Source: a virus (taxonomy: Duplodnaviria; Caudoviricetes). From it: DNA of 39,869 bases. A program made the position numbers and the translations under genes. The stretch is from positions 1 to 39,869 of IMG/VR virus record IMGVR_UViG_3300043416_000063; one strand, given 5' to 3'. Below the pieces are notes generated by a model. The model was not told the DNA's origin. It did not search any database and saw nothing but the letters and a program-made list of their open reading frames with translations. How positions within the stretch are numbered: the first letter of the stretch is position 1; each line of letters begins with the position of its first letter. Positions 2,186 through 39,869 of this stretch are shown here, piece after piece.

Positions 2186-2539
2186 TTACCGTTGCCGAGT
2201 TGAACTAAAAAATTTACTTGGGACGGGTCTACGCGATACGGAAAGCATGCGCGGCAACTCTTTGGCGTTCGGGTCTTTTGACCATTCAATTAACTGCTGT
2301 ACTTTCTCAGCAAACCAGTACGGCTCTTGTATGTACAGGGCATATTCCTCGCGGTATATCTTGCGTGTCGGGTGAAATATCTGTGCGCTAGTGCGGAACG
2401 GGGTTGCCTGAATGACAATCCCGTCATCGTCAACGGCCACAAATCCATTCTTGGTTTGACCGACAATAAAGCCTTCATGCTTGAGGTACATGACTGCTCG
2501 AAGAATCTTTTTCTTGTTTCGGGTGGTTGGGTAATTCAT
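2186..2539 (-). CDS. Hypothetical protein, paralog of 1604-1864
   Basis: GGAG SD and ATGA coupling to the upstream gene. Shares motifs with 1604-1864. Confidence 0.75.
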   Translation of the reverse strand: MNYPTTRNKKKILRAVMYLKHEGFIVGQTKNGFVAVDDDGIVIQATPFRTSAQIFHPTRKIYREEYALYIQEPYWFAEKVQQLIEWSKDPNAKELPRMLSVSRRPVPSKFFSSTRQR

Positions 2540-2988
2540 ACATATCTCCGTGATGACGGTAAACGAACGTGTTCAATGGCAACTGCAAGGATTCGACGGG
2601 ACTCCGGTACATGACCAAGGAACTCGCTTACCTGCTTAAGTTCTTCGTTGGTCACGTTCTTCAGCATTGCTTCAGCCCACACATCCCATTCGGCAAACTC
2701 TTCCGGGCTGATTGGGGTGCAACGCTGTAGGTCATTGCGGGTCTGCTCAACCTCACGCTCACCTACCAGGTTCTGAGGGATCAGAGCGCAATACGCCTTG
2801 TGTATCGCTGATATATCAGGCTTTGAATCGCGCACTAAACGGTGCTGGCGGATGCATCCTTGCAGCTTGTCTTGATGCAATGACCCCCACTTCTCGTTCA
2901 ATATGCTGCTCAATACAGGCTCAAGTCTCCACTTCGGCCACAGTTCGTCCATCAACTTCCGATTATCCATCCATGTAACTGTTGTCAT
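2536..2988 (-). CDS. Putative helicase loader/inhibitor-like replication protein (G39P-like pattern)
   Basis: LMDELWP...W..L....L...I..H.....KPDISAI matches the pattern of phage helicase-loader N-terminal domains. Function is inferred. Confidence 0.5.
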   Translation of the reverse strand: MTTVTWMDNRKLMDELWPKWRLEPVLSSILNEKWGSLHQDKLQGCIRQHRLVRDSKPDISAIHKAYCALIPQNLVGEREVEQTRNDLQRCTPISPEEFAEWDVWAEAMLKNVTNEELKQVSEFLGHVPESRRILAVAIEHVRLPSSRRYV

Positions 2989-3025
2989 ACGCATGAGTAT
3001 ACGCGATGCTAAAGCGGGATGTAAA
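2989..3025 (-). promoter_or_regulatory. Sigma70-type leaderless promoter
   Basis: TTTACA-N18-TATACT-N7-ATG (2988). Confidence 0.7.
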
Positions 3026-3027
3026 TC

Positions 3028-3505
3028 CGCAAGGTTAGGCGAGTGAGTTTTTCAAAGAATTTCAGCAAGGCTCAATGCCGGTGCTAGAGCGGGTCTGTAG
3101 TTCAGAAGGTAAGGACGAGATTTTTCAAATCTCTTTCAATCCCAACCACTTAAGTGCTGACGGCTGTTGATGTACATGCGCGGAGAGCGTTGAGGGAGCA
3201 TCCCCGACCGTAGTCGGAGAAGCGTACTAGCACGGTGTCGCGCATCGGTATGCCTGTTGGTCTTTCACCTTGTTTCGCGTGGACTAGACGCTGGTATGCC
3301 ACTACACCACATGCTTTCGCACGGCCATGCACCGGGATGGTGGCGCATGGACTTACTAAGTCCGTTTCCACTAGCTTTCGCCAGCGGGTCATACTCCTTA
3401 CTTGAGCCGGAGTATCGCAACTGTGTGCTATGAGGGCTGCCTCGTCGGCGATACCCATTCGTAATGCGGCTGCACACCTACCACCAAGATGTCGTAACTC
3501 TGCGT
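3028..3505 (-). ncRNA. Candidate large structured non-coding RNA (~480 nt)
   Basis: Minus-strand stems: CUGGC-GAAA-GCUAG, GUGC-GAAA-GCAU, CCGAC-UACG-GUCGG, AUACUCC/GGAGUAU, CCAUGCGCC/GGUGCAUGG, GGACUU/AAGUCC, GAGAUU/AAUCUC. Long-range pairs: GUGUGC/GCACAC and GUGCUAG/CUAGCAC. TG-T-AATAAT extended -10 at 3512-3520. No credible ORF. Confidence 0.65.
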
Positions 3506-3717
3506 GTTTGGATTATTACACCAAATACCTATAAGTTCAGAATTCCATGCTTCCAAATGGCTGTTTCACCTTGCGCCATTGGCTTGAGCCGGAATCATAG
3601 CAAGTGATCCTTGCGCCGTGGTCAGTCAAATCTCATAGTTTCCATCAGGACTTGTTGCTGCACAGGAAGCCTGGAAGATTTCGATCCACCCCGCTTTGCC
3701 TTTGGTACACTTTAAGT

Positions 3718-3796
3718 CCTTGCGCGGTTGCCTCTCAGCCGCCCCCCCGGAAGCACGGTGCGTTGACTTCGCGGTCCGCACCGTGTTCTTTTATTT
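3718..3796 (+). ncRNA. Candidate ~80-nt sRNA with intrinsic terminator
   Basis: Extended -10 TG-G-TACACT (3703-3711). Hairpin GCGGUUG-CCUCU-CAGCCGC. Terminator stem AGCACGGUGCG/CGCACCGUGUU followed by CUUUUAUUU. Confidence 0.55.
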
Positions 3797-3865
3797 CCGG
3801 AACCGGAAACACCAATCAAAGTGGAATGCTTACGCCGTAGACACATTGTGGTAACTGTGTCGATT

Positions 3866-6317: not shown

Positions 6318-7804
6318 AATACCTATCCGTATGCTCCGGCATCGAAGCAGCGTCTGTTGCATGGCATCGGCTTGGCTACGAGCCTGTTGGATTTTCAGAG
6401 ATCGAACCCTTTCCTAGCGCGGTTCTCGCGCATCATTACCCTCACGTTCCCAATTTTGGGGACATGATCAAATTTCAGGAGTGGCCATTAGATGCAGGAT
6501 CAATTGACCTTTTGGTGGGAGGAACCCCATGCCAGTCTTTCTCAGTCGCAGGATTGCGACAAGGACTTAAAGACCCACGCGGAAACCTCATGCTTACCTA
6601 CCTTGCAATTGCTGCACGTTTACGGCCTCAATGGGTTGTGTGGGAAAACGTCCCCGGTGTCTTGTCATCAAACGGAGGACGGGATTTTGGTTCCTTCCTC
6701 GGGGGGCTGGGGCAATTGGGGTATGGGTTCGCGTACCGAGTGTTGGACGCTCAATGGTGCAGAACACACGGGCATCCCTGTGCCGTCCCGCAGCGCAGGC
6801 GACGTGTCTTCGTTGTCGGATGTCTTGGAAACGCAACCGCTGCCGCAAAGGTTTTGTTTGAGCGCGAAAGCGTGCAACGGCATATTAAAAAGAGCGGAGC
6901 GGCGCGGGAAGAAATTACCGCAGATGTTGAAGGACGCTTTGGAACAGGCTGCTGGTGGGACGGCGGAAACACCTCCGACACCCTGACCAAATGCGGAGCC
7001 AACGGGGCGCAGCGAATGCCCGACAAAGACAACTTTGGCGCGGTGTTGCAGCCAATTGCTGGTCCACTTGGTAATAGAGGTACACGCTCACACACGGAAC
7101 TTGATGGTCACGGCGCATATATTCCCGTCCCATACACTAAAGCTAAACGCGCCCAGTCTGATTCCGATGACGAGACATGGGTAGAGGGGCAGGTCAACCC
7201 TACGCTCTCGCTGTTTGATTGCGGAGATGTGCGGGCAACGACCGCAATTGCTTTCCACCCTACTCAAGACCCAATCAGCAGTACCGATGGGTCAGTTCAC
7301 GCAATTGGGTGCGGCAGTAGTGCGGGCTGCGCCACGCAGGCGGTGGCAATCCCACTTGATCTACGCAATAGCCAGCGTGACCCTGAGAAACACGACGCAC
7401 AGAACCGACAGGGTCTTGGCGTAGGAAGTGTTGGAGATCCAGCACCTACCGTAGATGCATCGTTTGTGCATGGAGTGGCGTGTTTCAAGAGTGGTCAAGG
7501 AGCAAAATCTAGGAGTATTGGTTACAGCGAAACAGTTTCTCCAACCCTGCCAAGCAACGCAGGAGGAAACACTACGCCCTCTTTGCTTCAAGCCATGACC
7601 GTGCGCCGATTGACCCCAAGGGAATGCGAACGCTTGCAGGGGTTTCCCGACGACTACACGCTCATTCCTTGGCGCAAGAAGGCGGCAGAAGACTGCCCGG
7701 ATGGACCCAGGTACAAGGCGTTGGGTAATAGCATGGCCGTCAACTGCATGGAATGGATCGGGGAGCGCATTGCCGCTGTTGAAGCAGAAAAGGAAACAAC
7801 ATGA
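6314..7804 (+). CDS. C5 cytosine DNA methyltransferase (orphan)
   Basis: Motifs I (SVCSGIEA), IV (GGTPCQSFS), VI (WENVPG), VIII (QRRRRVF), IX (RRLTPRECERLQGFPD) and X (KALGNSM). Long variable region. Confidence 0.95.
   Translation: MKYLSVCSGIEAASVAWHRLGYEPVGFSEIEPFPSAVLAHHYPHVPNFGDMIKFQEWPLDAGSIDLLVGGTPCQSFSVAGLRQGLKDPRGNLMLTYLAIAARLRPQWVVWENVPGVLSSNGGRDFGSFLGGLGQLGYGFAYRVLDAQWCRTHGHPCAVPQRRRRVFVVGCLGNATAAAKVLFERESVQRHIKKSGAAREEITADVEGRFGTGCWWDGGNTSDTLTKCGANGAQRMPDKDNFGAVLQPIAGPLGNRGTRSHTELDGHGAYIPVPYTKAKRAQSDSDDETWVEGQVNPTLSLFDCGDVRATTAIAFHPTQDPISSTDGSVHAIGCGSSAGCATQAVAIPLDLRNSQRDPEKHDAQNRQGLGVGSVGDPAPTVDASFVHGVACFKSGQGAKSRSIGYSETVSPTLPSNAGGNTTPSLLQAMTVRRLTPRECERLQGFPDDYTLIPWRKKAAEDCPDGPRYKALGNSMAVNCMEWIGERIAAVEAEKETT
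6492..6986 (+). CDS. Nested alternative-frame ORF in the MTase (possible beta-type subunit)
   Basis: 164-codon +1-frame ORF ending SLSDVLE...LSAKACNGILKRAERRGKKLP..LKDAL. Start codon uncertain. Confidence 0.45.
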   Translation: MQDQLTFWWEEPHASLSQSQDCDKDLKTHAETSCLPTLQLLHVYGLNGLCGKTSPVSCHQTEDGILVPSSGGWGNWGMGSRTECWTLNGAEHTGIPVPSRSAGDVSSLSDVLETQPLPQRFCLSAKACNGILKRAERRGKKLPQMLKDALEQAAGGTAETPPTP

Positions 7805-15761: not shown

Positions 15762-18700
15762 TCAACGGCGTGTGCCAAAGATCGGGGCGCGAAGATCAGC
15801 GTTGTTCTTGTCAATCATTAGCTGTATGCCGTCAACCGTGCGGTTGATCTGAACTGCTGGGATTCCAAACAGATCGCCGGCAAGGTTTAAGAGCGCACGG
15901 CGATATGCAGCGTCCCACTCATTCTGACGAGCCTGAATCGTTACATTGTAAATGTCGGTCATCATTGCTAGTCCGGATGGACCCGAATAATCACGGACTT
16001 CCTTTGCATCAAATTTAGCAAGGTTGCTAAGTTCACGAATACCGACCATTGAACTAAGCATGGTTTGAATGGACTCTTCCGCAACAAACGCCGCTAGTCC
16101 CTTTTCTTCATCGTCATCATTGTCTTTTCTCTTGGCTTTGATGGCTTGATTGACGTAATACTTGTAGACAGCAGGAACGGCAACTAGCAATGTCAACTGC
16201 GCGGCCGCTGTTGACTTCTTCTGTGTCATCACCGAAGTAGCCATTGAGTTAAACAGGGCATTTTGATATCCGTAGAACACCGTAAACAACTTTGACCAGG
16301 CTCCACCGCGTTCAACGGAAGCAAGGTCTTTCAGTTGACCGCCACCCTGTGAGTCAATGACAGCTTGGTCAGCAAGGGCAATCGACGTATCTTCGTTGTT
16401 GCCCTCAAACAATGCCTTCTCGTATGCACCCGCCCATGTTGGGTAATTGACCATCGACTGCATCACCTTGCAAAAGATGTATGCATTTGCGTGAATAGCG
16501 TTCCACTTGCCATCTTTATCCTGCATGGTGTTGCGGATTTCATTGAGGTCGCGGAACTGAGTACGACCAAGATCCCGCATCATGGATGACTTTTCTTGAA
16601 TCATGCTCATCATCTTTTTAGGATGAAAAACAAACGACCCAACGCCAATGGCAGTCCACTTTGGAACCAACGTGCCGTCAATTCTTACCCATGTGTTGGC
16701 TAGACCGGAAATCTGCATAACTCCGCTTGTTGCGTTAAACCCAAGACGAGCAGAACTGATTGAACGCCGCATCCACGTTGCAAAGTTTGCAGCACCTTGG
16801 TCGGCAGCTCCCTGACCAGCAGCAACATCCTTGATCCAATCTTTCATCTGCCTTTTGATTTCAGGTCCATATGTCTCATTTACCGTTGATGAGAATTCAC
16901 GATCCTTCATCATGCGGTTGGCACTAATCAACCACTCATGCCAACACAAGTCGTGAATGACTTCACCTAGTCCGCTATACACGCCAGTCATCGTCAACAT
17001 CAATGGACGCCCAACAACGCGCTCTGCTCGATTCTTGACGTAACTTCTGCGCGTTGTCGCTGCGGTAAACGCGCCCTTCATTTGAGCCTTGGCGGTTTCG
17101 GCGTCGGTGAACTGCTCGGCCGCGTCCGATGCTTTCGGGTCATACTTGATTGGGTAATAGCCACCCTCAAGATTCAAGGTCTTGCCATCGGAAGTCTTAA
17201 TTGCAAACGGCTTAACTTCAATCCAATTTGGACCCTTGCCGTATAGCCGGCGTTCCTTCGCCTCAACAAGCGGCTTGTATGTCTCAAAGTGATTCCAAAT
17301 CGCTTGGACAGCATTCCACTCGGTAGATGACAACGACTCCAATACCGGAGCAAGTTGCTCCATTGTCCAACCTTCGCCATCACGCATGCGTTGAAGGTTT
17401 CCCTCATTACCGCTGTTCAAAGCAATGACGAATCGTTCGCCACGGTTGAGTGAACGGTCAATGGACTTGAAGTAAACCCGGCCACTCTCCATGTTCCCGA
17501 GTGCCTTGACTGGCTTGAGAATGTTCATCACCTTCTCGGTCGCCTCACCAATCATGCGGGTTTCCATGTCCCCGGCTGCGTTTGCGCTGCGGATGAAATA
17601 GTTCCAAACCTTGCCGTTGTCCTTGCCACCGTCCATAATTCGAGCAATAGCGGCAACCTTTAGGTGTGCAGCCATGAACGTGCGAATACCTTCAAGTGCG
17701 CGACCGCCCTTAGTGGTTGCCGTTCGGGGGTTTAACTTCTTGCCTTCTTTCTTCTTTTCTTGGATGCTCTTGACAATTGCGTCGCGGGCGTCAACAAACT
17801 GCACTTTCTCGCCGGCAAGTCGAATCTCGTTCTCATGCTTGCCAATGTATTCCAACTGCTGAATAGAACTGACCAGGTCGCGGAACTCGCTGACGGTCAT
17901 CTGTTGGTAGGGCTTGCGGAACGATTCGTCTAGCAGCTTCGGGTCAATGTCCGGGACAATCCCAAGTTCAAGTTGCCCCTCAATCCACTTCGCAAGGGAT
18001 AACCGCTTGCCAGCCTCTTCCACCGAGATGTTTGCAAGCGAGAACCGCTCAAGCATGTTTGTGACTTGGTCAGCAATGTCAGCACCCATGCGCTGGACAT
18101 TCTTTGCTTTCAGCACATTCCGCAGATATTTGACACCCTTGGAAACTTCGTCCTTGGCATCCTGCGCCTCACGCGCTAGTTGGTTCTGAAGCAATTGGAT
18201 CTGCTTTGCCCGCAGGATGACCTGCTCAGGCGTCCGCTCCCCATACCTTGCCTTACGCTCAGACTCGCGCTCCGTAGCCTTCTGAGCGGCTTCCTGCCCC
18301 TTTGCAGCGGCAGCAGCCTCAACCTCAGACATTGGTACGCCTGCGGCAACGCCGGACAGCCCTGCGTTGCGTTCCTTGGTAGCAGCGGCCTGTGCAGCCT
18401 GGGCAGCGGTACGGCGTTTGCTGTGGGCGTCAGCAGCCTCGCGGGCAGCCTTGGCTTCCGCCGCCTGATACTCACTCGGACGTAGGTCACGGATAACCTT
18501 CCCGGCAATGATCTGCTGGGCGGCAAGTTTGGCTGCATCCATAAACACCCTGACCGGGGAGGTTGCCTTGGACAACCACCGAACCTCAACCGCGTTGAAC
18601 CGGAAACGAGCCTCGTTGTGCAACGCCCGCTGAACCGCCTCTTCCTGGGACTGAGGGGTATTCATGTCCCCGTTCTCGTCCATCATGCGCTTGTCGGTGC

Positions 18701-21700
18701 GGGCATTAATCTCTTCCTTTGCCGGCTTGGCAGACAGCAGGGCAAGAACTAGTTCGTCGCCACTACTGAAACCGAACATGTCCGCAGCCATATCCGGGTC
18801 CATGCCATCAGCAGCCACCATGCCGTACTTCCCAAACCCAAGCTTGGCGACATCTTCGGCAGGGATCATCTTCTTGACGGACTCAAGGTTCAACTTGAAC
18901 TTGTCATCAAACTTGACCAACTCCCCGTTCTTTGTCCGTCCTTCGCCAGTCTTCAAGATCGACATTGCCGCGTAGATAGGCTCCGCATCAACTTCCGCCT
19001 TGACCTCAGCGCGGATTTCCTTACGCAAGGCATCGTGCTTGGCCTGAAGTTCTTTCAGCACCCGGCTTCGTGCGCCTGACAACCATTGCATCTGCTTTAG
19101 GCTTGCCTTGGTCAGATCGGTGACGGCGGCATCCTCGGCTTCCTTGTTCATCGCCTGGTACGCAGCGTAGGTCACATCGTCCATGCCCTGCTCCGTAGCC
19201 TCTTCTTGCGTCAAGAACATAGGGACCATCTGCATCATGGCTTGCTTGCGTTTAATCTGATCTTCAGATGCAAGCATTCTGTCCATGACACCGCGCACCT
19301 CATCGGTCAGCACGGGCAGATCCTTGCCAAACTCGCGGCGGTAGATTTTGTTCAGGTCATCGCGGATTGAAACATAGACGCGCTTGATGAACGAAGCCAT
19401 GCGATCAAACACGCCTTGCATCTCAACGCTCGGAGCCTTGCCTTCAAACAGGTAGTTCTCAAAGTTGTAAGCAATAGCCTCCCAATGCGGACGCTGCTCC
19501 TCAAAGGTCATGGCATTCCAAATAGCCAATCGTTCTTGCTGATTCTCCCCTCCAAGCTTGAACGACTGAACCATAATGTCAAGATCAGCGATTTCCCGAG
19601 GCGATCCCGTTCCGTTATTGACGGATTGAATCATCTTGTCCATGCGCCAGTGCATCAACTCATGCAGGAACGTAAACGCATCTGCTTCGCTGTTGAGAAG
19701 AATCTCTATGCGCTTGGGGTCATATCCACCACGGGCAGGGCCGGGGGACGGAGCGGCTTGGAACAATTGCTTGTTAATTACATTGATTGCTTCAGATTGC
19801 GCTTTGACTGCATTGTCGTATTCAGTTACCAATTTTCCATCGGTTGACTTATACGAACCCATGTACGCGTCATCTCGCGCCATAAACACAACATCAGGCT
19901 TTCCGTTATTGAATGCGGAGAATGTTTGCTTGTCCCATCCTTCAGGCTTGAACTCTTCATTCCATGCCATTCGTGATGCAACCACAAATCCGTGCGGTGC
20001 ATAGAAGTGCGCTAGGACGGTGTCAAACGCATCAAGTTTTGTTCCACCAGCCGACACTGCCAATTCGATAAGCGCACGGCCGGAATTGTTTGCGGCAAAC
20101 ACGGAAACAATATCGCCATCAGGCTTAACAGCAACGCCGGACTTTGCATCTGCCGACAAGAATAATCGCATTCCGCGATATTCCTTTGGCGTGTAAACGG
20201 CAACCGTTGCCCCAAACGGTGATGCTTGTTTGTTCTCAACAATTGCAGCATGGAATCTTTCCGATGCCGCAGCGGTATTGCCTAGTTCGTAGAAGGTTGG
20301 CGTTGCATTTCCGGAACGCTTATACAGTTCCGCAAGACCAACACCAGCAACATACTCGCCGACAATTGGAACCCCTAGTCGATAAAGCCCTTCAGTATCT
20401 GCAACTGTTTGTTGCTCATACGAGAAGTGAGTGTCGAAAATTCCTTGCTCTCGGTTGAGTCGGGCGAACTTTGTTGCTGATTCGCCGGCATAGAACTTTC
20501 GTTCAAGGGTGCTTGATCCATCGGGTAGGGCTGGGACTTCCCACTTGCTTGCAATGGCAACCGCATCGGTTGTGGATCTTGCACGATTGGCATTTTGCTC
20601 TCGAACAATTTCATCAACAATGCGTTTTCCCTCGCCTGTGCCGCCGGCAAGGTCTGCCCACTTGGCTGCTTGTTCATCAAGTCGCTGCTGATTGACTTCG
20701 GGTCTAGTGTACCAAGGGGCATTTGCACTCTCCGTTACTTTGAATTGTGTCGGAACAACACCGTTCTTCGGCTGTTTGATGTTAGCAAGAAACTCCCGAA
20801 ACGCAGGAACTGTAAATGAATAGGAGTTACCGGATGGTGTTTGATATTGGAACCAAGGCACACCAGCCGCATTTCGGTTGTACATCGCCCCATATTCGTA
20901 TGCGCCGTATTCGCCTTCTTTGCTTGCCACATTGGCAATAGCTTGGTCGTCGCCCTTGGCATCGGCAAGGACTGCGGCAAGCGTTCCATGCGAGGCTTCC
21001 TGCTGACTGAATGCAACCCATGTCTCCCAGTGATATCTGCCAACGCTTGCGTCCTGTGGGCGACCAAGGCGTTCGTAAAGATCATAGATCTTCAATTGCA
21101 GTTGTCGCTCTAACGCTTCATATACAAGAATTCCACGAACACCCTCAGTGATATCATTCATTGACGATCCTGAGATCTTCTTTCCCTGCTCGTTCATTGT
21201 CCCGTCGTACAAATTCACACCAGGGAATCGACCGTCATCCCACAGTTGGCGAATCTGCACACGATCCAACACCATGACATCATCGAACCCGGCAACAAGC
21301 AGCGTGAAAGACATGACTTTGTTGTCAATGCCAACGCCCTCGCCAATCTTTGCAAATTCACGACGAATGCTTTGCCCAGTTTGATTGGGGTCTGAAAGCA
21401 TGTCATGCAGATTTTGCAAATGCGATTTGCCGTTGTCTCCAATCTTGCTCATCTTGAACAAGAAGTCTTTGCCAAATGCGTTTAGGTTGTGAGTTGCTCC
21501 TGCACCTGGAAGTCCACTTCCCTTTGGCGCAGCGGATCTTGCCCACTTGTCATATGCAGGAAAGTCTTCCTCTGAGAATTTGCCTTCAGCGGCCATTCCA
21601 ATCCACTCGGCAGATTTATCGAATGCATCAATAAACAAAGATTCTTGTCGATATGGACTAACACCACGCGAAAGGAATGACCACAGAATAAGTTTTGCCG

Positions 21701-24700
21701 TTGTGGTAACGCTTAACTCACCACTGGTGTATGCCGCTCTTAGTTCAGCAGCATTTTCAAACCCATGATTTGCGTCACTTATTTGACCTTCAGTAAGTTT
21801 GCTCAACGTGTTAAACGAGCCATCGCCATTGATTCCCTTAATGAATGCATATGGAGGAATCGGAACCTCATCCGATCCAAGCGCATACGCCATCATCTTT
21901 GTCCATTCCTCAATCGACTCGCCGGCTGCGGGGAACTTTGCAAGAATCCCATCGACATTCACTAATTGCTTGTCAGCGTTGTTGTTCTTGGTTCCTGTAA
22001 GGATCAATTTCTTTGCAGGTATTTCGGCATCGCCAACTACCTTGACGCGGAATGGTTTCCAAAAACCAAGTTTTGGCTCATCGCCAACACCAACACCAGG
22101 GGAATTTGCACCTGGCTCTGCCTTTGCAGCCTGTTCAAGAACCTGTGGAACGGTGTTGGCTTGCTTCGTAAATTCCTTTACCTGCTCCACCTGCTCGCTC
22201 GTACCTTCAAACGCCGAATACCCACCGTCTGACATGCCCATCTTGTACTTGCCATTGATGATGAACCCGCCATCAATAGTCGTATCTGCAATGTCAGGAA
22301 AGGTTTCAACGAGGTCGCCGTGCATGGTGGCGTTAACGTCGTAGTAAATTTGTCCGTCTGCATTCATTACCGCAAAGATTGGCTCACTAGATACGGGCGG
22401 GTTCCTAGCGTCAAACACTCCTGTGCTTGGCGCAGGTACGGCCGCTTGCTCATAAATACTTTCACGGCCTTTTGATGGTCGCAAATTGTTAACGTCTTTG
22501 AGTTGGTTGCCTTCCCAAACAATCCAAACATCAGAACGGTTTTCGCCCTCTTGCAAATTTGATTCAGGTTGTGATTTAACACCATCAAAACCTTGACGTT
22601 GCAACTCTTGTCGAAGATTGCCATCGCCAAACCAACTGTCGTTTTCGCCAAGCAACTCATAGAAGTTGTATCGAATTACACCAAATTCTTGGTCTGAACC
22701 GCCAGCAAGTGTGTCTACACCGTAATCGCCATATCGTTTACCGAGCGAACTATCAAACTTCAATTTAGATACGTCAACGCCTTGTTTCTTGAAATAGTTC
22801 TTCCATTGAGCAAGAGTGATTGTCTTGGCTCCCGAAACATCAAGCGGTTTATCAATAGAAGCAAACACCTCCATCACATACGGGCCGTAATTCTTGGCAA
22901 GTGATTTGTCTGTGGTTAGGAAGATTCCACCACTAAACATGATCTTTGGTGATAAGTACTTTTCATCTTCGCCGCGATATAGAACAATTGGCTTATTAGC
23001 TTTGTCAACAACCTTGCTTTTGCCAAACCACTTATTCCATTCCGGTGTCGTTGTCTTGCGATTTCCTGCCTGATCAAATTGTTCAGCCTGCTCAAGCGGA
23101 GCAACTTGCGTTTGCGGTCCAACAACATTCGGACCATGCTGTGCCATGTATGCAGCAGGAGTCATTTTCGCTTCGGCAGCGGCAACCACCATCATGTCGC
23201 GGAAGATCGTTGCCTCAACCTTAGCCAACTTTGGGTCGCGACCTACGGCAGTAAGTTTTTCTTGCATGTCCTTTTCAATGACACGCGCCTCGTTGACAAA
23301 CGCCGTGTCAGTAGTTTCTTTCTCTTCCAACAGAGCAAGGGCTTTCTCCTTCTCTTGCTCCAATTGTCCCGCATACTTGACCGCTGTATCTGCGCTCCAC
23401 GCGTCCGCGTTTGGACGCATGTGAATCTTCATTGAGTCGCCAAGCTTTGTGCCGGCAAGCCGAGCCGCGTAGGTAGCGGTCGGAATTGTGACATCGCCAC
23501 CAATAGATATTGCCTCTGCTAGTTGTTGACGAATTCCAGGAAGAACTGTGTCAACTTGCTCGTTCGTCAGACCTGACTGATTCAGAATGTTCTGCATTAC
23601 GCGACCGTCAACATAGGTCGTTTCCGCGCCCGTGCCATCAACCTGGTCGGCGTAGAACCGCTCCGCTGCGTCCGGGTTGCGCTGGCGCATCTTGCTGTCA
23701 ACCGCGTTCTTGGACAGGTCTTCGTAGAACTGCTGCGAACGCTTGGCGTCTGCGTAACGGCCACGATCCATGTAGTAGTTCGCTGCGGGCAGGGGAAGAC
23801 CCGCCACGGACATTCCGATTGCTACATTGACAAACGAGTCAACCGCTTCGGAAATGATGGCACGACGCCCCTCCGGCGTTTGAAACATGTTCTGAAGATC
23901 AGGTCGGTCGTAAGCGCGTCCGATTTCCGTACCGACACGGGTGATGGCGGTTTGTAGGCCTTCAACAGTTGACTCAGTCAGTATCTCGCCGAAGTACAAC
24001 TTGGACGCATCCCACACCGCTTCACTAGCGGTCGCCTTCTTAATCATCTGCTTTGACAATTCGGCGGTGACATCGGTAGCAAGTTCCTTGGCAAAGATCT
24101 TTTTGCCAACACCACTTGCGATATAGAGTTCTGCACCCAATCCTGCAAACTCAAGCGCGGATGTAATAACGCCAATACCTCGAGACATTGGCAAAGCAAC
24201 TTCGTGACTTACATCGCCTTCTCGCAATTGGCGATACGACTCGCCAGCCATTGACTGATACATCCACTTAGCCATACCAGTCGAAAATCCCGCAGCTGCA
24301 CCAAGAGCCATTCCTGCCGGCATGGTTGCTGGTGCAAGCGGTCCACCAATTGCACCGGCAGCACCACCCAACACGGCTCCTGTTACCGCGTATTGCGCTC
24401 CAGTCTCTGCGCCGGCTTCAACGCTTGCAAGCAGATTGGCAATGTTGCCGCTGATTGAATACGGAGCAGGCTGACCAACAATCTGAAGGTCGCGCTGTAA
24501 TTCCTTGTATCGCTCAAAGTCCTTTGACGTTGCCATCCCTTCCGAGTTCAGTTGGTCAATAGTCGCCATTTCGGTACTGATGAACGTGCCTTGTGCGCCC
24601 TTGAAAAAGTCCGTGCCGGCAAACCAATTCATCAACTTCTCAGTACCTGTGAGGTTCTCAAGATCGTCGTATGCAATGTTGGCAAAGTCAGGTTCTGTCA

Positions 24701-25112
24701 GCGAGTTTGCAGTCTTAGGTGCGCTTATCGCCAAGTTGCGATCAAGAGCTTTGAGCATCATTGCGCCGCGTTGAAGTTCAGCCAAATTGCGCTCGGCAAT
24801 GTCTGCACCAACGCCCATTTGCTTGCCAACGCGTTGCGCTTCGGCGACCGTGTCGGGGTTTTTCTTGGTCGCGTTGTAAAGCGATGAATTCAATACCGCG
24901 CTGCGTTGGTTAGCCATCTCATCGACAACGGCTTTAAGAGCCGGGTCAAGTTGTGGTTGCGGTGGCGCGGTTGGCAATACAAATGACCGACGAGGCGTGA
25001 TCGCCTCGGTCATGCTCAACGATTCTTGGGATACAACATTCTGAAGTAAGTCAGCATTTCCCTGTGATGGTGCGAGGCTGCCAAGTTGTTCGTTGATGTC
25101 AGGTTCAATCAT
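15762..25112 (-). CDS. Giant internal virion (ejection) polyvalent protein
   Basis: 3116 aa in the T7 gp16 position. Embedded ART-like, HhH-like, GNAT-like and HExxH (FLHELMH) regions. Confidence 0.85.
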   Translation of the reverse strand: MIEPDINEQLGSLAPSQGNADLLQNVVSQESLSMTEAITPRRSFVLPTAPPQPQLDPALKAVVDEMANQRSAVLNSSLYNATKKNPDTVAEAQRVGKQMGVGADIAERNLAELQRGAMMLKALDRNLAISAPKTANSLTEPDFANIAYDDLENLTGTEKLMNWFAGTDFFKGAQGTFISTEMATIDQLNSEGMATSKDFERYKELQRDLQIVGQPAPYSISGNIANLLASVEAGAETGAQYAVTGAVLGGAAGAIGGPLAPATMPAGMALGAAAGFSTGMAKWMYQSMAGESYRQLREGDVSHEVALPMSRGIGVITSALEFAGLGAELYIASGVGKKIFAKELATDVTAELSKQMIKKATASEAVWDASKLYFGEILTESTVEGLQTAITRVGTEIGRAYDRPDLQNMFQTPEGRRAIISEAVDSFVNVAIGMSVAGLPLPAANYYMDRGRYADAKRSQQFYEDLSKNAVDSKMRQRNPDAAERFYADQVDGTGAETTYVDGRVMQNILNQSGLTNEQVDTVLPGIRQQLAEAISIGGDVTIPTATYAARLAGTKLGDSMKIHMRPNADAWSADTAVKYAGQLEQEKEKALALLEEKETTDTAFVNEARVIEKDMQEKLTAVGRDPKLAKVEATIFRDMMVVAAAEAKMTPAAYMAQHGPNVVGPQTQVAPLEQAEQFDQAGNRKTTTPEWNKWFGKSKVVDKANKPIVLYRGEDEKYLSPKIMFSGGIFLTTDKSLAKNYGPYVMEVFASIDKPLDVSGAKTITLAQWKNYFKKQGVDVSKLKFDSSLGKRYGDYGVDTLAGGSDQEFGVIRYNFYELLGENDSWFGDGNLRQELQRQGFDGVKSQPESNLQEGENRSDVWIVWEGNQLKDVNNLRPSKGRESIYEQAAVPAPSTGVFDARNPPVSSEPIFAVMNADGQIYYDVNATMHGDLVETFPDIADTTIDGGFIINGKYKMGMSDGGYSAFEGTSEQVEQVKEFTKQANTVPQVLEQAAKAEPGANSPGVGVGDEPKLGFWKPFRVKVVGDAEIPAKKLILTGTKNNNADKQLVNVDGILAKFPAAGESIEEWTKMMAYALGSDEVPIPPYAFIKGINGDGSFNTLSKLTEGQISDANHGFENAAELRAAYTSGELSVTTTAKLILWSFLSRGVSPYRQESLFIDAFDKSAEWIGMAAEGKFSEEDFPAYDKWARSAAPKGSGLPGAGATHNLNAFGKDFLFKMSKIGDNGKSHLQNLHDMLSDPNQTGQSIRREFAKIGEGVGIDNKVMSFTLLVAGFDDVMVLDRVQIRQLWDDGRFPGVNLYDGTMNEQGKKISGSSMNDITEGVRGILVYEALERQLQLKIYDLYERLGRPQDASVGRYHWETWVAFSQQEASHGTLAAVLADAKGDDQAIANVASKEGEYGAYEYGAMYNRNAAGVPWFQYQTPSGNSYSFTVPAFREFLANIKQPKNGVVPTQFKVTESANAPWYTRPEVNQQRLDEQAAKWADLAGGTGEGKRIVDEIVREQNANRARSTTDAVAIASKWEVPALPDGSSTLERKFYAGESATKFARLNREQGIFDTHFSYEQQTVADTEGLYRLGVPIVGEYVAGVGLAELYKRSGNATPTFYELGNTAAASERFHAAIVENKQASPFGATVAVYTPKEYRGMRLFLSADAKSGVAVKPDGDIVSVFAANNSGRALIELAVSAGGTKLDAFDTVLAHFYAPHGFVVASRMAWNEEFKPEGWDKQTFSAFNNGKPDVVFMARDDAYMGSYKSTDGKLVTEYDNAVKAQSEAINVINKQLFQAAPSPGPARGGYDPKRIEILLNSEADAFTFLHELMHWRMDKMIQSVNNGTGSPREIADLDIMVQSFKLGGENQQERLAIWNAMTFEEQRPHWEAIAYNFENYLFEGKAPSVEMQGVFDRMASFIKRVYVSIRDDLNKIYRREFGKDLPVLTDEVRGVMDRMLASEDQIKRKQAMMQMVPMFLTQEEATEQGMDDVTYAAYQAMNKEAEDAAVTDLTKASLKQMQWLSGARSRVLKELQAKHDALRKEIRAEVKAEVDAEPIYAAMSILKTGEGRTKNGELVKFDDKFKLNLESVKKMIPAEDVAKLGFGKYGMVAADGMDPDMAADMFGFSSGDELVLALLSAKPAKEEINARTDKRMMDENGDMNTPQSQEEAVQRALHNEARFRFNAVEVRWLSKATSPVRVFMDAAKLAAQQIIAGKVIRDLRPSEYQAAEAKAAREAADAHSKRRTAAQAAQAAATKERNAGLSGVAAGVPMSEVEAAAAAKGQEAAQKATERESERKARYGERTPEQVILRAKQIQLLQNQLAREAQDAKDEVSKGVKYLRNVLKAKNVQRMGADIADQVTNMLERFSLANISVEEAGKRLSLAKWIEGQLELGIVPDIDPKLLDESFRKPYQQMTVSEFRDLVSSIQQLEYIGKHENEIRLAGEKVQFVDARDAIVKSIQEKKKEGKKLNPRTATTKGGRALEGIRTFMAAHLKVAAIARIMDGGKDNGKVWNYFIRSANAAGDMETRMIGEATEKVMNILKPVKALGNMESGRVYFKSIDRSLNRGERFVIALNSGNEGNLQRMRDGEGWTMEQLAPVLESLSSTEWNAVQAIWNHFETYKPLVEAKERRLYGKGPNWIEVKPFAIKTSDGKTLNLEGGYYPIKYDPKASDAAEQFTDAETAKAQMKGAFTAATTRRSYVKNRAERVVGRPLMLTMTGVYSGLGEVIHDLCWHEWLISANRMMKDREFSSTVNETYGPEIKRQMKDWIKDVAAGQGAADQGAANFATWMRRSISSARLGFNATSGVMQISGLANTWVRIDGTLVPKWTAIGVGSFVFHPKKMMSMIQEKSSMMRDLGRTQFRDLNEIRNTMQDKDGKWNAIHANAYIFCKVMQSMVNYPTWAGAYEKALFEGNNEDTSIALADQAVIDSQGGGQLKDLASVERGGAWSKLFTVFYGYQNALFNSMATSVMTQKKSTAAAQLTLLVAVPAVYKYYVNQAIKAKRKDNDDDEEKGLAAFVAEESIQTMLSSMVGIRELSNLAKFDAKEVRDYSGPSGLAMMTDIYNVTIQARQNEWDAAYRRALLNLAGDLFGIPAVQINRTVDGIQLMIDKNNADLRAPIFGTRR

Positions 25113-37963: not shown

Positions 37964-39289
37964 TCAAGTGTTTGCATACGGGTCGTAGTCCTTGACCGTC
38001 TTCTGCTTGACCTTGTCGTAAACATCGCGTGGAAGTTTCTTGCGTACTGGGGACGCGAACGTGAGCGCAAGCGCGTCTGCAATGTCAGGCGATGCACCAC
38101 CTTGCAGCCGCTTCTTGATCTCGTCCTTTGCTTCAAGCATGCGTTTGCCGGCCGCGTCATACCAATACACCGGGGTAGACAGTTCCTGCTTCAAATCGTT
38201 GTTGTTCGGAATTGCTCCCCCCTGCTCAATCCATTCCTTGAGCAACCACCACATCTCTGTGCGGCGGTTGACAAACAGGTTCGATTGGATTGCTTTGCCA
38301 CCGAACGCCACCTCAATGATGTCGTAGCCAAGCTGGCGCAGTCGGTCGATGACCCCTGCCCCTGCACCGGAGTCAATGAACACGGCATCCGGGTCCCAGG
38401 TTTCAATCAGATTTGCCACCCTTGAGGCAAGATCCATGTTGTCTATTCCGCGATAGACGATGGGATCAAACGCCTGAATGCCTTGCCTCTTGATGATGAC
38501 GCTGCGGTCATCCCCGAACCTAGCAGGGTCAACGCCAAGGATCTTTGGTGACCCCTCGTTATCCTTGTCGGTATACACGTGGTGTGCTGCGTTCTCGGCG
38601 TCAGCAAGCGAGATCAACTGATCGTCGCCAGCAGCTGCAAAGTCGCACAGATACTCACGGGCAAAGGCTGTCTCGGGCATGTCGCGCTTGAGGCGCGTGA
38701 CTTCTTCCTTGTCCAAGGCGTCCGTGTCATAAACCGTATACCGGGATGCCACCCAATCGGGCAGACTGTTCGCACGGTAGTACAGTTCTGAGAACAGGTT
38801 AATGCCGCTGGGCGTGCCGATAAACATTGCCCAACCTTTGCGGTCAGACAATGCCGGCTGAATGATGTCGTTCCACACCTCGGGCTTGATCTGCGCTACC
38901 TCGTCAATGACGCAGCCGTCAAGGCGTACCCCTCGCATGGCATCCGGGTTGTCACCACCAAACAAACGGATGGTCGCGCCGTTGTGTGCAAAGGTCACCG
39001 ACAAGTCAGCCTCGTTGACTTCAACGGCCGCAACGCTGCGAAGTGGTAGCAGTTTCTGCTTCAACCGCATCCAAGCGATTGCCTTGGCTTGCTTTAGGAA
39101 TGGGGCAACGTAAACAAAGAACCCAAGTTCCGCCTTGCAGCGTACGGTCTTGTCAATGAGTTCCATGATGGCAAGTTCGGTCTTGCCAGCACGCCGATGC
39201 AGGGCAAGCACCGTGAACCTGCGCCGTTTCAGATGACACTCCCGTTGCCAAGGGCGCGGGGTGTAAAGCAGGCTAATTTCCTGAGCCAT
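37964..39289 (-). CDS. terL: Terminase large subunit
   Basis: HRRAGKT, CVIDE and FIGTP ATPase motifs. GVDPARFGDD and SPDIADALALTF nuclease motifs. Confidence 0.96.
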   Translation of the reverse strand: MAQEISLLYTPRPWQRECHLKRRRFTVLALHRRAGKTELAIMELIDKTVRCKAELGFFVYVAPFLKQAKAIAWMRLKQKLLPLRSVAAVEVNEADLSVTFAHNGATIRLFGGDNPDAMRGVRLDGCVIDEVAQIKPEVWNDIIQPALSDRKGWAMFIGTPSGINLFSELYYRANSLPDWVASRYTVYDTDALDKEEVTRLKRDMPETAFAREYLCDFAAAGDDQLISLADAENAAHHVYTDKDNEGSPKILGVDPARFGDDRSVIIKRQGIQAFDPIVYRGIDNMDLASRVANLIETWDPDAVFIDSGAGAGVIDRLRQLGYDIIEVAFGGKAIQSNLFVNRRTEMWWLLKEWIEQGGAIPNNNDLKQELSTPVYWYDAAGKRMLEAKDEIKKRLQGGASPDIADALALTFASPVRKKLPRDVYDKVKQKTVKDYDPYANT

Positions 39290-39698
39290 CAGGCACGCCA
39301 GTCTTCAGGGTGATGCTGATACCACCCGTGTGGTTCATATCGACCCGCTCTGCCCACCGGGCGGGGTTCCACATGCGGAGGGTCTTGAGCCTAGTATCAA
39401 CCTGCAAACGCCTCCAAGCGGCTTGTACGGCGTCTGTCGGCTCCGTGTCGCTTAGGGTCTTGCACTCTTCAAGCATGGCTTCCTGCCCCTTGTCTCGGGC
39501 AAGCTTGTAAAGTGCGGCGAATTCCTCGTCTGCGTCCTTCCAATCATGGACTGTGCGGACATCGGGATTGCCCTTGCGCTTGGAGAATTCAAGCAAAGTT
39601 CCCCCGGTTGACAGCCAATCAAGGAGTTCGCTAGCCTTTGGATTGTTCATTACGGGTCCGCGCTTTGGAGCACCAACAGGCCGTTTAGGCTTCAACAC
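39273..39698 (-). CDS. terS: Terminase small subunit (second copy)
   Basis: Same as 583-1008 apart from one G/S change. Confidence 0.85.
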   Translation of the reverse strand: MLKPKRPVGAPKRGPVMNNPKASELLDWLSTGGTLLEFSKRKGNPDVRTVHDWKDADEEFAALYKLARDKGQEAMLEECKTLSDTEPTDAVQAAWRRLQVDTRLKTLRMWNPARWAERVDMNHTGGISITLKTGVPDGSGN

Positions 39699-39869
39699 GT
39701 TTCCATTGGACGGGGAACTGGGCGCGTCGTTGGTAGAGGCAGACTTTCCGGACAAAGGAACGAGAGAGGTTGACGAGCTTGGCGATACGACGATAGCCGA
39801 GGTTTTCTTCTTCATGGAGTTCTCTGATTTGGTTGACAACTCGATCCGGCACACGGGCGCGATGATGCG
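39685..39869 (-). CDS. HTH protein, 3' part (5' end beyond window)
   Basis: Copy of 995-1179. Confidence 0.75.
   Translation of the reverse strand, partial: HHRARVPDRVVNQIRELHEEENLGYRRIAKLVNLSRSFVRKVCLYQRRAQFPVQWKRVEA

Follow-up and report, generated by a model that had tools for sequence, protein, structure and literature searches.

The freshwater tailed-phage genome of IMG/VR record IMGVR_UViG_3300043416_000063 was analyzed over its whole length of 39,869 nucleotides (nt), called the window here, and it carries on its minus strand a conserved, folded RNA element (3495-3172) upstream of a gene for a 150-amino-acid (aa) protein. We regard it as probable that this cassette is a ColE1-like R-loop primer, which replaces a protein initiator of DNA replication. 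An earlier note on this DNA, made from the letters alone, had proposed either a primer/origin RNA or a ribonucleoprotein initiator. Comparison with related loci supports the former through the mutual exclusivity of RNA and DUF1376 gene in one slot, their repeated exchange, the conserved and co-varying structure, the covariation and one-way asymmetry of a direct repeat in a 3' module that resembles that of a self-template-pairing primer, and the compensation of a missing downstream gene by a sequence motif. Of the 42 distinct loci with RNA types A to C (the window is of type A), 12 are without the gene of the 150-aa protein, and this weakens the case for the ribonucleoprotein variant.

One slot for an RNA or a DUF1376 gene

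Related loci were collected via the downstream 150-aa protein, 73 from IMG/VR and 60 from metagenomes with some contigs in both, and after leaving out 7 of these 133 loci that start at a contig end, 126 were typed. Their slots hold an RNA of type A (18 loci), type B (56) or type C (23), an open reading frame (ORF) of 170-195 aa (23), or a sequence too short for typing (6). With the slot ORFs typed by peptide motif and all type A rows included, 97 ORF-less structured loci stand against 23 with a DUF1376-like ORF, none has both, and 6 of the 126 are untyped; RNA and initiator-like gene are thus mutually exclusive here, a point which the earlier note had wanted checked.

The two kinds of cassette have also been exchanged within otherwise similar genomes. 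An ORF-type locus (L119) and a type B locus (L122) share 94-95% identity in the flanks to either side of the slot, and the same swap is seen between flanks that are ~94% identical on both sides in L124 and L131. In a tree of 44 downstream proteins, where type A is represented by the window only, the ORF label has to switch 6 times, with 4 or more of the switches forced by well-supported branches, and the three RNA types interchange among near-identical phages. When two slot ORFs were tested against DUF1376, one scored above and one below the Pfam cut-off. Slot ORFs match PHROG 'primosomal protein' families (E-values 1.5e-12 and 4e-6), several of them hold 3-5 copies of a 9-mer in an iteron-like manner, and PF07120 is found genome-wide in 7 of 7 ORF-type records versus 0 of 31 others (14 of these at least 90% complete). 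The DUF1376 ORF probably encodes a replication-initiator protein. One phage in the accessible part of PMC5795418 is listed with a DUF1376 protein and a putative helicase loader, with no function assigned there, and helicase-less viruses often encode initiators according to passages in PMC4889955.

The window is a near-complete, terminally redundant genome of ~38.7 kb. Positions 1-1179 recur at 38691-39869 with 96% identity, which makes the genome effectively complete, and this repeat reflects a circular ~38.7-kb genome assembled from mixed strains; each copy of the terminal repeat contains a small terminase gene. Among the 45 main proteins, Pfam and PHROG assign to DNA metabolism a methylase, RusA, ERF, Gp157 and a phosphoesterase, and find, within profile sensitivity, no initiator, primase, helicase or polymerase; no reverse transcriptase was present among the 45 proteins scanned. 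The absence of these four replication functions from the complete genome, which the earlier note had claimed, was borne out by these and by targeted profile searches. Toprim_3, DnaB_C, HTH_36, IstB and Pol A are absent from 21 of 21 genomes of types A-C and from 3 of 3 ORF-type genomes, and these five families represent initiators, helicases, primases, loaders and polymerases. Comparison of the window with cultured phages and plasmids by blastn gave no match.

The 150-aa protein had been called helicase-loader-like. It gave no significant match in Pfam, PHROG or fold searches (model with a predicted local distance difference test score of 65), and the only lead is a weak one, an Atlas row of 0.89 to a cluster with PF11417 (G39P_N) on 11% of its members; it is possibly a helicase loader. 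In loci of types A-C, loss of its gene is accompanied by a motif: at least three copies of GCGNAGC within 260 nt after the RNA occur in 10 of the 12 loci without the gene versus 2 of the 30 with it (Fisher p 3e-6, which overstates the support since the loci are related), and the motifs of the gene-less loci number 63 on the RNA strand and 2 antisense. None is present in the window. We take GCGNAGC to be a putative primosome assembly site (pas), a reading supported by the one copy that ColE1 has past its origin on the RNA II strand. A role of pas in ColE1 replication is described in part of PMC3167613.

The RNA body and its 3' module

The conserved block of type A (Table 1) can be aligned to the divergent members L287 and L162, and its conservation stops at the second copy of the direct repeat (3172); beyond it, 3170-2995 forms a spacer of variable sequence, in which a terminator-like site and a separate promoter for the downstream gene are found. 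The earlier note had described ~480 nt with no credible ORF; such an ORF is indeed missing, but the conserved part is only ~325 nt. The sole sizeable ORF of the region (3150-3458, minus strand, 102 aa) has no match in Pfam or PHROG and is disrupted in close relatives, being reduced to 66 aa in L001 and 31 aa in L075 and interrupted by stops in L018. There is no conserved ORF in 2995-3520, and an interrupted or recoded initiator gene was rejected, as the ORFs are unconserved and the base pairs co-vary.

The fold contains the minus-strand stems with GAAA and cUACGg loops that had been noticed before. Over the whole region folding of the minus strand is marginal (z-score -1.62, with 6 of 100 shuffles equally good; plus strand +0.73), and locally, at 3320-3439, it reaches a z-score of -4.7 versus -0.8 on the plus strand. 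A 60-pair structure of type A, hand-drawn from the same sequences that it was scored on, is 95% paired over 9 homologues, and its 12 pairs altered on both sides were matched by 0 of 500 shuffles (slid controls 33-47% paired), although most of these two-sided changes come from L287 and L162 and so represent few independent events. In the 5' domain they affect 5 of the 6 outer-helix pairs and 2 of the 3 inner pairs, and the stem with two GAAA bulges shows a C-G/G-C exchange in 4 of 9 rows. The type B RNA has two-sided changes in 25 of 58 pairs (20 sequences), so compensatory pairs are found in both types, and one-sided G-U variants are consistent with the minus strand, in agreement with the strand-specific G-U pairs pointed out earlier. 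The long-range helix 3227-3233/3081-3087 fared otherwise: it appears in the single-sequence fold, but in relatives it is either disrupted with no compensating change (L001, L018) or given another partner (L036), and we rejected it as unconserved; copy 1 of the direct repeat provides its 5' arm.

A pattern built on the two-GAAA-bulge stem recovers both types A and B, and L162 joins a type A-like 5' half to a B-like 3' end. The 5' cores of types A, B, C and E (the last being Betaproteobacteria-1, discussed below) are mutually unalignable. Scans with type A patterns gave 19 matches, 7 of them at chance, a looser scan returned no new clade, and a GTDB scan for the host with the A/B pattern gave 20 matches, all without the 3' module and regarded as chance. 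An Rfam search of the window and of type A-C loci found no match, either to a known unrelated RNA family or to the models of ARRPOF, PAGEV, GEBRO, ROOL, GOLLD, known ribozymes and introns. An intron was rejected for want of a model match, and a retron or diversity-generating retroelement, which a repeat with A-biased differences might suggest, because there was neither a model match nor an adjacent reverse transcriptase. The comparisons indicate that the element is a real, uncatalogued structured RNA.

At their 3' ends types A, B and C share a module, in which anchor 1 is followed by a 9-10-nt segment, a hairpin, anchor 2 and, 52-57 nt later, the segment again, giving a direct repeat of 8-10 nt that co-varies between its copies. 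Own copies match at 5.3 of 7 positions versus 2.5 +/- 0.16 with shuffled partners (72 pairs), and in types A-C alone at 6.2 of 8 versus 3.9 +/- 0.35 (19 pairs); in L018 they are identical at 10 of 10. The differences have a direction, since G in copy 1 with A in copy 2 outnumbers the reverse by 38:1 (80 of 96 pairs, 16 with fewer than 5 of 7 matches excluded), by 43:1 without the filter and by 22:0 in types A-C only. Type A is represented by L287 only in the 72-pair and 80-of-96-pair counts and in the analysis of iterons and anchor motifs, and by all its rows in the A-C counts. Such a bias is as would be expected if copy 1 of the RNA paired with the template strand of copy 2, because copy 1, as the sense strand, would tolerate G-T but not A-C when paired with the antisense strand of copy 2, and template DNA would be a simpler reading of the antisense partner than an antisense RNA. 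A co-varying third strand, sought up- and downstream within the RNA, was not found (at best 0.40 versus 0.32 +/- 0.04).

Table 1 Features of the cassette and its surroundings in the window
Feature	Position	Strand	Basis or remark
Conserved structured RNA body, type A	3172..3495	-	18 loci 89-93% identical; covariation; no Rfam match
5' domain: helix 3477-3472/3428-3423 around stems 3456-3454/3436-3434 and 3449-3447/3441-3439	3423..3477	-	covariation
Hairpin 3415-3409/3397-3391	3391..3415	-	stem varies, pairing preserved
Predicted pseudoknot: loop start 3408-3405 complementary to 3471-3468		-	four pairs invariant, so covariation neither supports nor refutes it
Four hairpins: 3387-3368 (GAAA loop), 3363-3349, 3347-3328, 3323-3310 (GAAA loop)	3310..3387	-	fold and alignment
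Stem with two GAAA bulges on 3' side, common to types A and B	3262..3295	-	pattern search, covariation
Anchor 1, degenerate form of relatives' GYGGCTCC	3234..3243	-	alignment
Direct repeat copy 1, predicted guide pairing with template strand	3224..3233	-	7/10 identical to copy 2
Module hairpin with cUACGg loop, between repeat copies	3201..3220	-	no pair altered on both sides in this alignment; 87.5% of cells paired
Anchor 2 (3190-3182), then repeat copy 2 (3181-3172); predicted origin and hybrid site	3172..3190	-	offset from copy 1: 52 nt
Extended -10 TGnTATGAT, likely cassette promoter	3594..3602	-	alignment with L018, L036, L082
Decayed copy of a 52-56-codon ORF downstream of extended -10	~3590-3530	-	alignment with type A loci
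Second -10-like element, possible proximal promoter	3512..3520	-	in L001; placed elsewhere in L036
Terminator-like hairpin in variable spacer	3063..3080	-	3 found vs 1.8 expected: weak
Sigma-70-like promoter of downstream gene	2996..3025	-	10/12 matches; -10 kept in relatives
150-aa all-helical phage protein, after RNA or DUF1376 ORF	2536..2988	-	133 related loci

The element at 3512-3520, which the earlier note had taken for an extended -10, does exist, but it is imperfect and the promoter scanner was silent there, and a better one lies at 3602-3594. Ahead of other type A RNAs (L018 ~3330-3490; L162) a basic ORF of 46-56 codons is conserved. Of 48 distinct type B copies, 41 have a sigma-70-like site immediately before them, as scored at loose thresholds and with no shuffle control.

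Further upstream, at ~4100-3935 on the minus strand, lies a second candidate for a conserved structured RNA, ~160 nt long with a co-varying loop-loop complement. Its 14 distinct copies show two-sided changes in 9 of 25 predicted pairs, relatives have a -10-like site just upstream, it occurs in both RNA-type and DUF1376-type phages, and it has no Rfam match. A conserved hairpin with co-varying arms at 3745-3810 (minus strand) precedes the slot whichever of the four cassette types it holds and is possibly an operator, antiterminator or terminator. Elsewhere in the window, 15762-25112 (minus strand) encodes a polyvalent virion protein of 3116 aa with LPD22 and a weak ART-PolyVal match, and a 164-aa ORF at 6492-6986 (plus strand) lies in another frame inside the DNA methylase gene, as it also does in L002 and L004; contigs from RNA runs have joints in the region of this ORF.

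Betaproteobacteria-1 and other known systems

Two unrelated phage loci came up with the two-anchor pattern. Their 8-nt repeats are perfect and new in sequence, and both loci match the Rfam motif Betaproteobacteria-1 (RF02932, type E), whose model ends just before anchor 1. This motif reportedly comes from a study that also treats ARRPOF. In a scan with the module pattern 5 of 32 new matches were true members, and in a family scan of 120 stretches, 89 of them distinct, the 3' module follows Betaproteobacteria-1 in 80 of the 89 distinct pattern loci. Like the element of types A-C it is phage-borne, has one strong copy per genome (18 of 18) and continues into the module of two anchors, hairpin and direct repeat. 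The 120-nt RF02932 model, in contrast, fits neither the window nor types A-C; at its cut-off of 49.4 bits it gave no match at the locus in G000 or 8 other A-C genomes. GCGNAGC is missing altogether from 49 of 59 Betaproteobacteria-1 loci. Of 43 type E loci, 23 come immediately after a helicase or primase gene; many members are preceded by genes for an SF2 helicase and a Toprim primase, which phages of types A-C lack. The cultured phage AP1 has its RNA in a lambdoid early region, with primase on one side and RusA on the other. Several members (L353, L395, L428, L429, L440, L447 and L350:5060-5132) have a second anchor pair, with the T/A copy difference reversed to A/T, and an RNase H gene stands directly 3' of the RNA in L415:2347-2781.

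The closest known parallel is RNA II of ColE1, a folded transcript that starts replication protein-free via a persistent template hybrid, with helicase loaded on the displaced strand (parts of PMC5043065, PMC3167613 and PMC6312765). By analogy, the phage element would act as a folded transcript that hybridizes with its template, with no element-encoded initiator found, and gene-less phage relatives have the pas-like motif downstream on the transcript strand as ColE1/pMB1 does. However, it is ~325 nt long versus 550 nt for RNA II, its 8-10-nt repeat is variable in sequence with copies 45-60 nt apart, and its carriers are tailed phages. A blastn search of 3150-3520 against PLSDB gave no match, and type B gave only short matches at chance level; no RNAI match was obtained in Rfam, and no Rop was seen at the phage locus. 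At 1070-1088 and 1181-1187 of its minus strand, which is opposite to RNA II, ColE1 (L345) has near-exact copies of both phage anchors, their order unchanged. A plus-strand primer, a candidate prompted by these look-alike anchors, is disfavoured by the promoter position, the G-U polarity and the strand of the pas-like motifs.

Other plasmids offer elements of the same kind. Marine RNA-based (MRB) plasmids of Vibrionaceae have protein-free replication regions of 250-500 nt (passages in PMC3035462), ARRPOF lies within a region needed for rep-independent replication (part of PMC5737381), ARRPOF and PAGEV motifs are treated in sections of PMC5737381 and PMC12990946, and Polynucleobacter-1 is listed in the accessible part of PMC2864571. 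MRB, ARRPOF, PAGEV and GEBRO resemble the phage element as structured, protein-free replication regions, but they belong to plasmids, no antisense regulator is seen at the phage element, and the Rfam and plasmid searches without a match set it apart. In phages, the lambda O/P and SPP1 G38P/G39P modules have an initiator gene followed by a loader gene, and the sister phages with an iteron-bearing DUF1376 gene show the same slot and gene order, whereas RNA-type loci have neither initiator gene nor iterons. The T4 origins oriF and oriG are R-loop origins with a promoter and an unwinding element, served by T4's own replisome; they share transcript-primed initiation in a phage but have no conserved folded RNA with a self-matching repeat in place of an initiator.

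Possible mechanism, alternatives and significance

We infer transcription, hybrid formation, priming and the loader role as follows. Host RNA polymerase would transcribe the minus strand from 3594-3602 or 3512-3520, and its transcript has a multi-stem core, into which, as the covariation shows, the 5' 250 nt fold. Copy 1 of the repeat (3233-3224), brought forward by the 20-nt hairpin, may then pair with the template strand of copy 2 (3181-3172), as the repeat asymmetry suggests, and this pairing behind the polymerase would seed a persistent R-loop. In analogy to ColE1, RNase H or the RNA itself would make a 3'-OH that host Pol I extends, resulting in a D-loop. To judge by gene content, helicase loading onto the displaced strand would fall to the 150-aa protein in this phage, to host PriA in the gene-less relatives, acting at their pas-like hairpin clusters, and in many phages with Betaproteobacteria-1 to a helicase-primase pair of their own, so that three alternative helicase-loading routes appear to accompany one RNA module.

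Several observations weigh against such an R-loop primer. The repeat copies of the window differ at 3 of 10 positions, and among copy differences in general C1/T2 versus T1/C2 stands at 4:5 with the filter, 5:2 in types A-C and 17:8 unfiltered, where wobble cannot explain C1/T2, while T1/A2 differences also occur (9). GC skew, named earlier as a check, shows no inflection at the element, the coding strand dominating the signal. Contigs of RNA runs (four runs) cover a copy of the L018-like element (3181-3504), but they cover many other genes as well and are strandless, and the scanner called no plus-strand promoter of an RNA I-like antisense transcript. The slot counts of 97 and 23 come from loci that are related and partly duplicated between the collections and are not independent, and DUF1376 as an experimentally proven initiator was not found in the literature consulted for this analysis. 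No replication gene stands beside 20 of the 43 type E loci, and one of these phages (G052) also has an HTH_36 protein, its RNA lying between scaffold and capsid genes. Finally, a model of the module built on 47 type E examples gives type B a weak score (best E-value 0.025) and misses the window, and for this reason types A-C and Betaproteobacteria-1, linked by architecture and via intermediates, are treated as a common architecture and not as one proven family.

It is unlikely that the element is a mobile or accessory RNA with a role outside replication, such as selfish homing, regulation or defence, in phages replicated by an unrecognized protein, with the repeat serving recombination or self-insertion. 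Two different HNH nuclease genes, one of them HNH_3-AP2, immediately precede the type C RNA at some loci (L003:2678-3358, L006:2474-3358), and another HNH gene is placed likewise at one type E locus, making homing spread of the cassette possible, and the varied type E contexts, with G052 holding both RNA and HTH_36, as well as the swapping of three RNA types among near-identical phages, would fit such an RNA. Yet the element substitutes for the DUF1376 gene instead of adding to it, has a single strong copy per genome and is followed by pas-like clusters that track the loss of the downstream gene on one strand, and Pfam and PHROG find no recombinase or reverse transcriptase adjoining it in the window. 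A folded single-stranded DNA origin for host primase, PriA or the 150-aa protein, with the repeats as protein-binding sites, is decidedly improbable. Covariation cannot separate RNA from single-stranded DNA (as noted in part of PMC5737381), but promoter-like sites precede most type B copies, the loops are of the GNRA kind, and the repeats vary freely while staying matched, with a one-way G/A bias for which protein sites would have no need.

An improbable variant is a catalytic initiator, in which copy 1 would serve the core as an internal guide for cutting RNA or nicking DNA at copy 2, giving a 3'-OH without RNase H. The predicted hybrid has a fixed irregular geometry (GG versus pyrimidine, T versus A and, in 52 of 80 pairs, G facing A where the repeat begins) resembling a docked substrate helix, and the core's elaborateness goes well beyond the needs of a hairpin; set against this are the lack of a match to any Rfam ribozyme family, the unalignable 5' cores and the RNase H gene behind the RNA of L415. 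We speculate, and think it rather unlikely, that types A-C and Betaproteobacteria-1 form one phage RNA clan of catalytic initiators, whose core docks a re-programmable 8-16-nt guide on its own template DNA, makes the priming end and fully replaces the initiator protein. The chance is very slight that RNA and 150-aa protein form a ribonucleoprotein initiator, or that the RNA is a cis-regulator of that gene: the two are adjacent in most loci found via the protein, but the gene-less loci mentioned above do without the 150-aa gene, which also follows the DUF1376 ORF and has its own promoter beyond the terminator-like site.

RNA-initiated replication has been described for two plasmid families, ColE1 and MRB (PMC3035462, from 2010). 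In the openly accessible literature (subscription journals were outside the scope) we found neither a report of a phage RNA that substitutes for an initiator nor a published function of Betaproteobacteria-1. What would be new here, and what we think fairly likely from the comparisons, is RNA-primed initiation in tailed phages, interchangeable with a probable protein initiator and with no membership in a known family by sequence or Rfam. A passage in PMC5043065 calls the trigger of the persistent hybrid at RNA-primed origins speculative, and the natural covariation of the phage repeats pinpoints the bases to mutate, which makes this trigger testable. This tailed-phage lineage repeatedly exchanges a probable protein initiator for a folded RNA. 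If the R-loop primer reading is true, it would explain how many small phages without recognizable replication genes copy their DNA, the orphan motif Betaproteobacteria-1 would gain a function and its missing 3' end, and new compact, sequence-addressable replicons would become available as useful tools.

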